From an uncultured archaeon (GTDB lineage: Archaea > Asgardarchaeota > Thorarchaeia > Thorarchaeales > Thorarchaeaceae): a stretch of DNA of 64,000 bases. Positions 4,963 through 56,115 of this stretch are shown piece after piece. The stretch's first letter is position 1. Every line of letters starts with the position of its first letter. The stretch lies in the NCBI GenBank assembly GCA_964458565.1, contig CAYWJO010000007.1, positions 46,470 to 110,469 on the forward strand, given 5' to 3'. Under the pieces are notes generated by a model. The model was not told where the DNA came from. It worked only from the letters and a program-made list of their open reading frames with translations, and made no database searches. A program made the position numbers and the translations under genes.

Positions 4963-5101
4963 GGGTCGGTGGTCTAGCTACCAGGTCAGGTTTTCTGTCT
5001 TGGCTAGAATGGCTATGATTCTTGGTTTGGGTCCGAGAGTCAATCTGACTCTCTAGCAAGGATCCAAGGGATCGGGCGTTCGAATCGCCCCCGGCCCACC
5101 A
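4963..5101 (+). tRNA. tRNA-Pro(TGG) with two introns (D-loop 17/17a, 4980-5009; canonical 37/38, 5032-5062), CCA encoded
   Basis: GGGTCGG/CCGGCCC acceptor stem, CTTGG-TT-TGG-GT-CCAAG anticodon arm, GGGCG-TTCGAAT-CGCCC T arm; bulge-helix-bulge (BHB)-like junctions. Confidence 0.9.
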
Positions 5102-5147
5102 TTTCTTCTTGATTCTCTGTGGTGCTTTTTAGGTATCATACAAGTAA

Positions 5148-5852
5148 ATGTCCGAGAGAAACGTTATGCAGACTGGACAAGAACTTGCCATCACTGCTAA
5201 TATTGCGGCTTTCATTGTATCCGCAGCAGTTGCAGCATTTTTACTTCGCCTATGGTATCGACAGGAGAACAAAATCTACACTGACCTACCGTTGATGTTT
5301 GGAATTACTTTCGCATCGATGGCTTTGAATGCCTTAATTCAAGCTATCACAATATCTGAAATTATTGGTGCCACGATGGATATTTTTCGTATTCGGGCTC
5401 TAGTAATCAGTGGGTCTGCATTCCCTCTACTTGGTGCATTACTCAATATCTGGCTTCCAAAATATCAGAAACATCATGTACAAATCATGTTGTCACTCAT
5501 TGGATATTGGATCCTTGTATCTGTTCTGGGTCCAACAGAAGCATTAGTAATGTCACTTTTGATTCCCCTGCTTCTTGTATTCACCATTGGCATGATGGTT
5601 ACCTTCTCTATTACTTGGAAGACGGGTCGATTAGAAGAAGTCCGGAGCGACCTCATGGTCCTGACGCTACTCATTGGTTTTGTAAGCCAAGTAATCCGTG
5701 TCCCAATGACATCGATGGGTCTAGATTTCATTCCGATTAGTATTGCTGCATTATCTGCCGTAATTGGTGGGTTCGCATTGGCAAATCCATGGTACCATCA
5801 GAAACAGGCACGAGCCAAGATAGAATCACATTCAGTTGTAGTTGGTGTATAG
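5148..5852 (+). CDS. Hypothetical ~7-TM membrane protein
   Basis: Seven hydrophobic segments in 234 aa. Confidence 0.7.
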   Translation: MSERNVMQTGQELAITANIAAFIVSAAVAAFLLRLWYRQENKIYTDLPLMFGITFASMALNALIQAITISEIIGATMDIFRIRALVISGSAFPLLGALLNIWLPKYQKHHVQIMLSLIGYWILVSVLGPTEALVMSLLIPLLLVFTIGMMVTFSITWKTGRLEEVRSDLMVLTLLIGFVSQVIRVPMTSMGLDFIPISIAALSAVIGGFALANPWYHQKQARAKIESHSVVVGV

Positions 5853-53834: not shown

Positions 53835-53941
53835 ATTTGGCTCTTTTTTTAGGACCTTATTAGCAATCATGTAGACGATACGAGACGGAAACAGAGAGAG
53901 GTGCAATTCATGGAAAATCAGCCAAAATAGCTATGAAACTA

Positions 53942-53995
53942 GTCACAATTTGTGACCCTCAAGAGTGACCCTAAACTGTGGCTTCGCTATATATA
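53942..53995 (+). promoter_or_regulatory. Palindromic site plus TATA box upstream of the microprotein operon
   Basis: GTCACAA-T-TTGTGAC (53942-53956), GTGACCCT direct repeat, TATATATA at 53988-53995. Confidence 0.5.
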
Positions 53996-54027
53996 CTAAA
54001 TCTGAGTAGTAATTCTTGTGAAATATA

Positions 54028-54138
54028 ATGGCTCTGACGACTAATTCCCGGAACAAATCTGTGCTGAAGAACAAGAGAATCACAAGAGCTCCATCAACGG
54101 ATGCTATTGTGTTCGCCTACATGATTGCTCGGAGGTGA
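54028..54138 (+). CDS. 36-aa microprotein MALTTNSRNKSVLKNKRITRAPSTDAIVFAYMIARR
   Basis: ATG about 32 nt after the TATA box; paralogous to the next ORF. Confidence 0.65.
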   Translation: MALTTNSRNKSVLKNKRITRAPSTDAIVFAYMIARR

Positions 54139-54146
54139 TACCTACA

Positions 54147-54242
54147 ATGGCGATTGCTAAGAATGAGAAAACATCAAACACCAAGTACAAGGCTCGAATC
54201 ACAACCGAGGCTATCACACATGCCTACACTTATCGGAGGTAG
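54147..54242 (+). CDS. 31-aa microprotein MAIAKNEKTSNTKYKARITTEAITHAYTYRR
   Basis: Perfect GGAGGTGA RBS 8 nt upstream; shares T[DE]AIxxAY..RR with the preceding ORF. Confidence 0.7.
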   Translation: MAIAKNEKTSNTKYKARITTEAITHAYTYRR

Positions 54243-54248
54243 AATTCT

Positions 54249-54368
54249 GTGAATACCGACGTTCGTGACTCGTCAAGCATCCATCTCGATTCGGATGCAT
54301 CCGAAAAGAACACCAGAGAGAGTGGCGCACTAACTCTGGCTGAAGTGCTCGCGTTAGAAGCTACGTGA
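54249..54368 (+). CDS. 39-aa acidic microprotein MNTDVRDSSSIHLDSDASEKNTRESGALTLAEVLALEAT
   Basis: GTG start with GGAGGT RBS; T7 tract at 54378-54384 after the stop. Confidence 0.55.
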   Translation: MNTDVRDSSSIHLDSDASEKNTRESGALTLAEVLALEAT

Positions 54369-54702
54369 GCACATGACTTTTTTTGCACCAGCATCTTAAT
54401 TCAGTTTCATTATCAATTCGGAACCATCAAGTTCTAACCTTCACGCTTATCTTCTGCTTTTCTGAGCCTATCAATAACATCAACTATGTTCTGTGAGCCC
54501 TCTAAGAAATCCAAGAAATCGAGTACTCTTGGCATGAAATCAAGAAAGCAGCAGTCTTTTCTGAATAATCCTGAATTTTCACAAATATCTCCTATTCATT
54601 TGCACTCGTGATACCCTTTGTATCTAAGCTTGTAGGGATTATCGAAAATATATTTTGTTAAGGATAGAATCAGAAGTCATGAAAGCGTGACAACGGATCA
54701 GT

Positions 54703-54999
54703 CTAATGTTTCAATAGTTCTTTTGCGAGATTTTGCACTTGTTCTAATACTTTCATTATTCTGGGATTTTTGATACTATACATTTTCCGAGTTCCGTCTT
54801 TTCTGACATGCAATATTCCAGCTTTTACCATCTGAGTCAGATACGACGAAATTGTGGATTGTGCTAAACCAATCTTGGGAAATATTTCACATTGACATTT
54901 CTCTCCATCTAAAAGAAAATCAACAATTTCCAATCGTATCGGGTTGCCAAGTGCCTTGTGAAATTCAACCCGCCATATTATCCCATTATCATTACCCAT
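54703..54999 (-). CDS. arsR: ArsR/SmtB family regulator
   Basis: KALGNPIRLEI...EKCQCEI...QSTISSYL...G. Confidence 0.85.
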   Translation of the reverse strand: MGNDNGIIWRVEFHKALGNPIRLEIVDFLLDGEKCQCEIFPKIGLAQSTISSYLTQMVKAGILHVRKDGTRKMYSIKNPRIMKVLEQVQNLAKELLKH

Positions 55000-55011
55000 T
55001 CAACAACTCCC

Positions 55012-56115
55012 TCACATAGGTTCTCCTTTCCAGAACTTCTTTTTTCGCAGATATTTTCCGAGATAGACAATACCAAGCATCACTGGAACTTCCCAAAATA
55101 GACCCATCGTGGTGCCAAGAGCAGCAATAGACCCCACTCCATATATGGCAATTGCTGTAGCAATTGCGATTTCAAAGTGGCTTGAAGAACCGATGATTAC
55201 AGTGATGATTCCTTCTCTGTATGCGAGTTTTACTATTCTTGTTATGAATAAATTGAAACCAACGACCATTGCGAATCCGATTAGGAGAGGTACTGATACT
55301 AATACTAGAAGATCAGGGTGTTCTAGCATCTCTTTGCCATTCAGCGAGAAAAGAACTATCAATGTTGACAATAAAGCCGCTAATGCAGCCTTTCCAACTG
55401 CAGGTCGATACCTATTCTCAAACCACTCAGAACCTTTCCAGTTAACTAGCGATCTCCTACTAATCAATCCCAAAACAAGTGGCGCTCCGATAAATACCAA
55501 TACAGTTACCAACAAAATCAAACGATCGATAGGGATATTCGAGATTCCCGTGAGAAGAGCAACTATTGGTGCATAGAGTATAATTATGGTGGCAGTGTTT
55601 AGACTGGTATTAACGACATTTTGTTCTTGATTTCCATCTGCAAGGTATCCCCATACAAGGACCATTGCAGTGCATGGACTTGAAGATAAAAGGATTATAG
55701 CTACAATCAACTGCTCGTTACCAATAAGAAAGTAATTTGCTAGGCCAAAACCAACGAGTGGCGCGATAATCCAATTTGAGAATAATGTTAGGATAATCGG
55801 TTTCGGGTTTTTTCTTAATTTTTTTAATTCTGATGCTTGTATATTCAGCATTGCAGGATACATCATAAGGAACAAACAAATTCCAATAGGAACTGATATT
55901 CCTCCAACTTGCCAAGAATCAATTACTTCACCTATCCCTGGTATAGTTAGTGATAGAACTACACCGATAACCATACAGATTCCAACCCACAATGGTAGGT
56001 ATCTCTCAAAGGTACCAAGGCCTTCCCTAGATTCCGAATCTTCGTGTTTATCTACAACTTCATTCTGTTTCTGTGAGTCCGGATTGAATCCATCATTACC
56101 TGACATCAGTTCCAT
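55012..56115 (-). CDS. acr3: ACR3-family arsenite efflux transporter
   Basis: FERYL.LW, LMMYP, NW.IAP, PCTAMVLVW, SSHFEIAIA.AI, EVPVML. Confidence 0.93.
   Translation of the reverse strand: MELMSGNDGFNPDSQKQNEVVDKHEDSESREGLGTFERYLPLWVGICMVIGVVLSLTIPGIGEVIDSWQVGGISVPIGICLFLMMYPAMLNIQASELKKLRKNPKPIILTLFSNWIIAPLVGFGLANYFLIGNEQLIVAIILLSSSPCTAMVLVWGYLADGNQEQNVVNTSLNTATIIILYAPIVALLTGISNIPIDRLILLVTVLVFIGAPLVLGLISRRSLVNWKGSEWFENRYRPAVGKAALAALLSTLIVLFSLNGKEMLEHPDLLVLVSVPLLIGFAMVVGFNLFITRIVKLAYREGIITVIIGSSSHFEIAIATAIAIYGVGSIAALGTTMGLFWEVPVMLGIVYLGKYLRKKKFWKGEPM

Follow-up and report, generated by a model that had tools for sequence, protein, structure and literature searches.

A Thorarchaeota-specific cassette of basic and acidic micro-protein genes, and a predicted operator shared with efflux-pump and bactofilin-like genes

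Results

A cassette of three micro-genes beside polX

The stretch of DNA analysed here, which we call the window, is 64,000 nucleotides (nt) long and comes from an uncultured Asgard archaeon of the Thorarchaeaceae (assembly GCA_964458565.1, contig CAYWJO010000007.1, positions 46,470 to 110,469). Positions 53942-54384 of the window, beside the gene polX, are one copy of a cassette of ~440 base pairs (bp) that is specific to one Asgard family (Thorarchaeota). The cassette holds three open reading frames (ORFs), two for basic micro-proteins (B1 and B2) and one for an acidic micro-protein (A), arranged as follows.

53942-53956: operator palindrome GTCACAATTTGTGAC, GTCACA-ATT-TGTGAC; left boundary of the repeated cassette
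53965-53971 and 53978-53983, + strand: two half-site-like boxes, GTGACCC and GTGGCT, between operator and TATA box
53988-53996, + strand: TATA box TATATATAC
54002-54027, + strand: conserved short 5' leader ahead of ORF1, CTGAG.AGTA…CTTGTGAAA.AT, alignable across genera
54028-54138, + strand: ORF1, B1-type basic micro-protein, ATG start, 36 amino acids (aa), net charge +7
54147-54242, + strand: ORF2, B2-type basic micro-protein, ATG start, 31 aa, net charge +5
54249-54368, + strand: ORF3, acidic micro-protein A, GTG start, 39 aa, net charge -5, tail EVLALEAT
54345-54372, + strand: 10-bp RNA hairpin spanning the last ORF3 codons and the stop codon
54378-54384, + strand: T7 tract, likely transcription end; right boundary of the repeated cassette

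The original prediction, made from the sequence of this region, had listed the palindrome, the TATA box, the three ORFs of 36, 31 and 39 aa and the T7 tract, and all of them lie where it placed them; the hairpin and the boxes GTGACCC and GTGGCT had been missed. It had also described how each of the two upstream genes ends in the ribosome-binding site of the next, and this is what we find. The last codons of ORF1 (CGG AGG TGA) and of ORF2 (CGG AGG TAG) spell GGAGGT, and the next start codon follows 8-9 nt on, so that the Shine-Dalgarno sequence of ORF2 overlaps the 3' end of ORF1. A GTG at 54135 would lengthen ORF2 to 35 aa; relatives begin at the ATG instead. The leader before ORF1 has no GGAGG, the sole candidate being a GTGA 8 nt 5' of the ATG.

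Taken by itself, the palindrome is not significant in one window (0.21 expected; found in 21 of 100 shuffles). It is the whole arrangement that recurs. A whole-genome motif scan of this assembly finds 11 B members at six loci and three A members, public Thorarchaeota records hold more than 116 promoter matches, and the order B1-B2-A is kept in at least 10 genera. The unit had been called complete, regulated and translationally coupled; its architecture of frames, promoter and terminator is indeed conserved, and from that architecture regulation and coupling are predicted.

Codon evidence for selection on the peptides

Patterns of substitution indicate that B1, B2 and A are protein-coding genes whose C-terminal motifs are under purifying selection. 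Among 59 distinct B genes the invariant alanine is spelled GCT (29), GCA (18), GCC (7) or GCG (5), and other conserved residues vary in the same way: the preceding threonine is ACC, ACT or ACA, tyrosine is TAC or TAT, and serine moves between TCN and AGC. Synonymous variation extends to the N-terminal Ala-Leu-Ala-Lys of B and to the codons of A for L-E-A-T, which form the loop of the hairpin. In relatives the frames run to 34-38 aa with zero internal stops, and they are open in hundreds of copies.

Over whole peptides, the median ratios of non-synonymous to synonymous substitution (dN/dS, Nei-Gojobori) are 0.43 for B1, 0.34 for B2 and 0.52 for A, and close pairs go down to 0.07-0.26 (0.07-0.22 for B2). 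The whole-peptide averages are raised because the N-terminal halves are variable and of low complexity. The polX-locus copy of one genus, g7, consists of B1 and B2 only, followed by convergent genes, and the cargo-less B1-B2 copy of this genus gives ratios of 0.14 and 0.21. Conservation in relatives had been named as the check on the three frames; frames and motifs are kept across genera, and substitutions are biased toward synonymous changes.

Two micro-protein families

ORF1 and ORF2 belong to a family of 26-38 aa with the consensus MALAK…STxA[IL]xxAYx[YF]RR. Its members are defined by that length, an N-terminus of the MA[LI]A[KT] type and a C-terminal [ST]-T-x-A-[ILV]-x-x-A-[YF] that lies shortly ahead of the stop codon. 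The two ORFs had been proposed to be paralogous, in agreement with their matches to a single family hidden Markov model (HMM; E = 3e-18 for ORF1 and 2e-13 for ORF2); ORF3 matches the model of the acidic family with E = 1e-22 (alignments A3 for B1, with 30 sequences, A4 for B2 and A5 for A). Within cassettes B1 has ~34-38 aa, B2 ~26-31 aa and A 33-41 aa, and B1 and B2 remain distinct subfamilies in fixed order, B2 being invariably second.

The conserved B helix, S-T-x-A-[IL]-x-x-A-Y, presents an A-x-x-x-A face with Leu/Ile and Tyr, and the other half of the protein is rich in Lys, Arg and Asn. The original prediction had read a motif T[DE]AIxxAY…RR from ORF1 and ORF2. The shared C-terminal motif holds, whereas RR does not hold as a peptide motif: the terminal Arg-Arg of B genes is largely the Shine-Dalgarno sequence of the next cistron. 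We read it so because B copies with a more distal Shine-Dalgarno sequence, or with no downstream gene, end in KQM or QR.

ORF3 carries the acidity that had been ascribed to it and shows the features that define the A family, namely 33-41 aa, a variable polar or acidic N-terminal part, a terminal [ED]-V-L-A-L-E-A-T directly before the stop, and the third position in the cassette. At other loci we found 51 distinct A tails. An acidic disordered part precedes the tail, which forms a short hydrophobic helix, and in a six-frame translation of this genome the tail motif is confined to A genes. Neither B nor A peptides have a transmembrane segment. The B peptides are mostly polar and basic and lack Cys; their grand average of hydropathy (GRAVY) is -0.31 for ORF1 and -0.99 for ORF2, with a family median of -0.66 and a range of -1.57 to +0.20.

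No family had been recognised for these peptides, and none emerged from the databases. The three have no match in Pfam at E up to 1 or in NCBIfam, PHROGs and PADLOC at E up to 10; the best match among sequences of the Protein Data Bank (PDB) reaches only E = 0.86, and a feature search of the ESM Atlas returned only matches of 0.88, to unnamed bacterial clusters. A scan of the intergenic gap against Rfam gave only a chance microRNA match (E = 7.7), a tRNA scan of the gap gave none, and a literature search found no paper on this micro-protein family. A profile search of 1.8 billion representative proteins yielded 49 B matches, nearly all of 29-38 aa and named, if at all, 'hypothetical protein'; the single long match (P0049) is a bacterial repeat protein matched by chance. 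Two derivations from larger proteins were also considered and rejected. Mimicry of a larger protein, as by microProteins, does not fit the absence of both the B and the A motif from every longer frame of this genome, and A is not a truncated N-terminus of a major facilitator superfamily (MFS) pump, since MFS_3 N-termini lack EVLALEAT.

Distribution and copies

Both HMM searches confine the B family to one lineage. Among relatives, 20 of the 24 genomes searched from the same taxonomic family carry it, and all 16 from outside lack it; a wider search found it in 77 of 85 family genomes and in 0 of 315 from more than 30 other Asgard families. Copy number, whose variation had been proposed as a check, ranges from 1 to 12 basic-family members per genome. 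The public records with the promoter bear the title Candidatus Thorarchaeota, apart from a few under Promethearchaeota or Hermodarchaeota.

A DNA search with the promoter and leader of the window (53940-54035) finds them again on two other contigs of this genome, at 85% and 76% identity, and downstream of both copies come ORFs that encode the shared peptide motif and, beyond these, MFS transporter genes. In some genomes, copies at different loci are 97.5% identical across ~410 bp, exactly from the palindrome to the T-run, and duplicated units begin exactly at the operator and end just past the T-run. The polX-adjacent copy occupies the same locus in several genera, and we therefore read the identity within genomes as gene conversion (concerted evolution) and not as transposition. 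The duplicated units lack terminal inverted repeats, duplicated targets and a constant target sequence, and a mobile element of the miniature inverted-repeat transposable element (MITE) or IS200-like kind was rejected on these grounds.

Not every copy follows the pattern of the window. This genome has an intact solo B gene at C26. At C35 (L006:3845-4651 and 1633-2442 on the + strand, 4971-5342 on the - strand) there are two B…A operons in tandem, with a promoter of another kind. Flanking them are a divergent gene, whose 269-aa product matches HTH_20/ArsR-type domains weakly and below the cutoff, and convergent genes for a Zn-ribbon protein and a UbiE-like S-adenosylmethionine (SAM) methyltransferase. 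This synteny is repeated in L011, L025, L026, L036 and L037. Beside the C35 operons also lies an ORF of 124 aa that has no Pfam match and looks profilin-like by eye. One recurrent locus type in relatives (L018, L022 and L024) has B1-B2-A immediately 3' of an EamA/DMT transporter gene in the same orientation, which adds a third transporter class to the neighbours of the cassette.

Convergent to the cassette in the window are genes for an ArsR-family regulator (54703-54999, - strand) and an ACR3/SBF-family, arsenite-type transporter (55012-56115, - strand). They are apparently unrelated to the cassette, and other genera have different genes at this position.

A conserved hairpin across the end of the A gene

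The stem at the end of ORF3 has 10 bp, six of them G-C pairs, and the T7 tract begins 6 nt past it. In an alignment of 51 distinct A-gene ends, 93.5% of cells are paired, and pairing drops to 22-54% in slid controls. Cells changed on both sides number 22, against 5.5 in shuffles, and 0 of 500 shuffles reached as high. The covarying pairs cross the boundary of the coding sequence: Val GTG/GTA changes with a non-coding C/T after the stop codon, Leu CTC/CTT with the stop codon itself (TGA/TAA), and Ala GCG/Met ATG with Thr ACG/ACA.

The loop codons vary synonymously and the stem covaries, and therefore both the peptide tail and the RNA helix are under selection. A G+C-rich stem, a T-run and compensatory changes are the features of an intrinsic-terminator-like element, and the hairpin and T-run are likely the transcript end, where they would terminate transcription or stabilise the 3' end. 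A metagenome scan with the hairpin sequence found one contig and zero transcript-like records.

A predicted regulon of peptide, pump and bactofilin-like units

The ~100 nt upstream of the micro-genes are conserved across genera and across paralogous loci. Their layout is the palindrome, 8 bases, GTGACCC, 6 bases, GTGGCT, 4 bases, the TATA box and the leader ending in CTTGTGAAA.AT, followed by ATGGCTCTA. We searched with the pattern GTGAC-N8-GTGACC-N7-GTGGCT-N4-WWTATATAC, the TATA part of which is invariant as WWTATATAC; it matches the window's own locus (L001) at 53952-53996. From the position of the TATA box we infer a transcription start ~25 nt downstream of it.

Eighty promoter matches in public Thorarchaeota records were examined. 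Family micro-genes follow in 70 of the 70 that could be scored, nearly always with B1 first; the other 10 were unscorable, being at contig ends or, in a few cases, divergent copies. The third position after the promoter is taken by A, with nothing related beyond it, by an MFS_3-type pump, or, after 200-435 nt, by a second type of MFS pump. The common promoter thus precedes three kinds of unit: B1-B2-A, B1-(B2)-MFS_3 pump, and B…second MFS pump type. In units that lack A, an MFS pump is almost always the first long gene to follow in the same orientation. All MFS_3 orthologues of at least 58% identity, from six genera, have B genes directly upstream, and the gap between the stop of the preceding B gene and the MFS_3 start is -54 to +19 nt.

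In other genera the operator palindrome stands upstream of ~25 of 33 family loci. Within this genome, exact copies are restricted to C7, C45, C10 and C21, and exact GTGACCC-N5-8-GTGGCT occurs at the family loci C7, C45 and C57 only. The C10 copy lies outside the peptide family: the identical operator GTCACAATTTGTGAC and a TATA box precede the only PF04519 (bactofilin) gene of this genome (contig C10:3500-6500, locus L172), whose product has 429 aa and beta-helix repeats. Two paralogous genes for winged helix-turn-helix (wHTH) proteins of 110 and 117 aa flank it, and the locus is laid out as follows.

L172, 557-889: wHTH gene
L172, ~1164-1178: operator
L172, ~1261-2551: bactofilin-like gene
L172, 2616-2969: second wHTH gene

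The order wHTH, operator, bactofilin is repeated in 8 other genomes, the wHTH gene always being just upstream of the operator. The copy on C21 (~39233 of the contig; L171:1734-1748) sits in the divergent gap between a gene of 162 aa and one for a 297-aa multi-pass membrane protein. Taken together, these positions suggest that the common operator defines a small regulon of peptide, pump and bactofilin-like units.

Several other arrangements were seen around the promoters and pumps. Between the B genes and the second MFS pump type there is a second conserved promoter-like stretch (L010, reverse complement, ~2010-2130, and likewise L059, L073, L098, L110 and L114), together with a small ORF of ~40 aa that contains Cys (MMTMT…C-L-T-x-x-D-K-T-I-C-V-Q-S-F-G-A-L-C) and is unrelated to B or A. 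A second type of B promoter (L007:3150-3243 on contig C26; L010, reverse complement, 1640-1745) has several GTGACC/GGTCAC boxes in other arrangements, for example TGACCAGAGTTCTGGTCA, which suggests that different architectures employ one and the same half-site. A decayed B gene with an internal stop (L051:1299-1415) precedes an MFS_3 paralogue of 42% identity; it suggests that the linkage of peptide and pump is old and is sometimes lost.

Discussion

A tentative model of action in trans

The candidate roles listed in the original prediction were peptide precursors or signals, nucleic-acid or ribosome binders with an acidic partner, and a micro toxin/antidote set; all of them keep the standing of candidates. 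We tentatively favour a model in which B1, B2 and A work in trans: together they would form a stoichiometric set of basic and acidic small proteins that belongs to an envelope/efflux regulon. This reading leads because of the complementary charges of the three proteins, the conserved helix of B and the hydrophobic tail of A. Action in trans is suggested because cargo-less copies, namely B1-B2 in genus g7 and the solo B gene at C26, are still kept by selection; that B1 and B2 persist as distinct subfamilies in fixed order points the same way. According to the model, a dimeric regulator would bind the operator and switch all operator-bearing units together, as one envelope/efflux programme. Coupled translation of a single mRNA of ~380 nt would keep B1, B2 and A at a constant ratio, and the hairpin and T-run would end and stabilise that mRNA. 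The A-x-x-x-A face of the B helix would pair B1 with B2, or either with a target, and the Lys/Arg/Asn-rich halves would contact something polyanionic. A, with its acidic disordered half and EVLALEAT helix, would be the stoichiometric partner or antagonist of B1 and B2, and at pump loci the transporter would take its place.

Small proteins tied to transporters are known in bacteria: AcrZ, which acts on AcrB, SgrT and MntS are modulators of <50 aa that are encoded or co-regulated with a transporter, are mostly single and often membrane-embedded, and are not multi-copy. The Thorarchaeota peptides resemble them in size and in their transporter link, and differ in being multi-copy and in having no transmembrane segment.

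Several observations weigh against the trans model. The wHTH protein encoded beside the bactofilin operator was rejected as the family-specific regulator, since it is also present in genomes and families without the peptides, and it is therefore only a positional candidate. In operons with a pump, the B genes occupy the place of leader peptides in bacteria and the stop of B2 overlaps the start of MFS_3, so they may have a cis-regulatory role there. Conservation peaks immediately ahead of the stop codon, and each of the three peptides could fit inside the ribosomal exit tunnel, features that would also suit arrest peptides. A complex prediction for B1, B2 and A with family alignments gave a score of 0.01; its controls were not run, and it counts neither way on binding.

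Leader or arrest peptides acting in cis

These observations lead to a rival reading, in which B1 and B2 would be translated solely to sense a drug or metabolite in the exit tunnel, or charged tRNA, and would thereby gate translation or transcription of the next cistron, be it A or an MFS pump. In bacteria, leader peptides before mef(E)/mel, erm, cmlA and speF gate the next cistron by such sensing; we know of no archaeal precedent. The B genes always come first after the promoter with variable cargo behind them, the MFS_3 orthologues keep B genes directly upstream at the close spacing given above, and both the length of 26-38 aa and the peak of conservation before the stop would suit a nascent chain that acts on its own ribosome. 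The sister loci, where short ORFs lie directly upstream of a DHA3/MFS_3-type pump and are translationally chained to it, are like mef(E)/mel and msrD, and bacterial MFS_3 (DHA3-type) pumps such as Mef are leader-controlled (PMC4335068, PMC10314930).

A short ORF directly upstream of a longer gene is found at the MFS_3 loci and not in the window or at cargo-less loci. However, the window copy has no pump, its 'cargo' is itself a peptide of 39 aa, and the purifying selection on cargo-less copies would be hard to explain by gating. There are two distinct peptides in fixed order, 3-4 times longer than Erm or Mef leaders. An attenuator was sought in the fold of the transcript and none was found: over its whole length the transcript has a z-score of -1.66, the 3' hairpin is the one helix both robust and conserved, no alternative structure sequesters the downstream ribosome-binding site, and the junctions are plain overlaps of Shine-Dalgarno sequence and stop codon. 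In addition, the N-terminal MALAK is kept at the amino-acid level despite synonymous variation, which a tunnel sensor would not need. We consider this reading unlikely. The bolder proposal that the B peptides, each about the length of the exit tunnel, are the first archaeal nascent-chain sensors, in which a small molecule would stall the ribosome over the Shine-Dalgarno sequence or start of the next gene and so tune the output of pump and A, is in our judgement more unlikely still.

Exported cationic peptides

A second rival reading takes the B peptides to be exported, leaderless cationic peptides of a bacteriocin, phenol-soluble modulin (PSM) or signal kind, against which the third gene protects or which it exports: A would neutralise them, or an MFS pump would expel them. 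The psm-alpha genes of Staphylococcus aureus with the Pmt exporter offer one precedent, being tandem leaderless micro-peptide genes with a directly regulated promoter and a transporter link, whose products are amphipathic, surfactant-like helices. The tandem leaderless genes and the tie to a transporter recur in Thorarchaeota; unlike PSMs, the peptides here are mostly polar and basic, with one short helix and an acidic partner. We also know of no MFS pump that carries 30-mers.

Leaderless bacteriocins resemble the cassette in layout. Aureocin A70, garvicin KS and the cereucins are encoded by 3-4 tandem related genes for cationic peptides of 30-34 aa that lack a leader; every gene has its own ribosome-binding site, and a dedicated promoter is controlled by a helix-turn-helix protein (PMC6131525). 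The window likewise has tandem, related cationic peptides of ~30-35 aa without a leader, several diverging copies of them occur per genome, and A and MFS pumps are mutually exclusive at the third position. The hydropathy of the peptides does not fit, however: their median GRAVY of -0.66 contrasts with +0.40 to +0.71 for aureocin A70 and garvicin KS (PMC6131525, table), and they are thus hydrophilic where leaderless bacteriocins are hydrophobic or amphipathic. The sequences share no similarity, and the peptides here lack a long amphipathic helix, a Trp-rich core and a signal. Neither the window nor the A-type loci have an ABC exporter or membrane immunity gene, and a co-oriented transporter is absent from the A-type loci. 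The set includes an acidic member, it belongs to an archaeon with up to 12 copies per genome, and co-regulation with a bactofilin-like gene is a poor fit. Overall we give this explanation little chance.

Peptide precursors and non-coding repeats

It is very unlikely that the genes encode precursors of a modified peptide or cofactor, such as a ribosomally synthesized and post-translationally modified peptide (RiPP) or a PqqA- or MftA-like substrate, in which the Tyr-containing C-terminus would be the recognition or core region and the modifying enzyme would be encoded elsewhere. Small size, an invariant A-Y near the C-terminus, scattered multi-copy genes and the UbiE-like methyltransferase at one conserved locus type would fit, but that gene is convergent and found at this one type only, neighbours otherwise vary by locus, the peptides have no Cys, and no locus type has a co-oriented radical-SAM enzyme, cyclodehydratase, lanthionine synthetase, protease or ABC exporter. 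Finally, chance ORFs inside a conserved non-coding RNA or mobile repeat, a notion that draws on the discrete, nearly identical repeat with hairpin-capable ends and on the habit of gene callers to skip ORFs this short, are contradicted by the codon evidence (synonymous spread at invariant residues, dN/dS below 1, frames open in hundreds of copies), by the absence of an Rfam match, terminal inverted repeats and target duplications, and by the constant polX-adjacent locus, and are extremely improbable.

Significance

This analysis newly defines the EVLALEAT family, shows that the hairpin covaries with the stop codon, places the boundaries of the cassette exactly, with a reading of concerted evolution, and adds the argument from cargo-less copies for action in trans and the failed hydropathy test for bacteriocins. 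The cassette is also an example of dual coding, with a Shine-Dalgarno sequence in Arg codons and a terminator hairpin in Val-Leu-Ala codons whose stem covaries with the choice of stop codon.

Among prokaryotes, no known group is more closely related to eukaryotes than the Asgard archaea, whose small proteins nearly all lack annotation. Here one of their families has a strictly lineage-specific, multi-copy and strongly conserved micro-protein system with its own predicted operator, and the same operator or promoter stands at two types of efflux pump and at a bactofilin-like cytoskeletal gene. If the peptides were nascent-chain sensors, they would tune expression inside a lineage-specific regulon that also remodels a bactofilin-type cytoskeleton. 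Should they turn out to be ribosome-borne sensors, or to regulate the cytoskeleton or efflux, the mechanism would be new for Archaea. The predicted regulon is a concrete, testable one in organisms with almost no experimental genetics.

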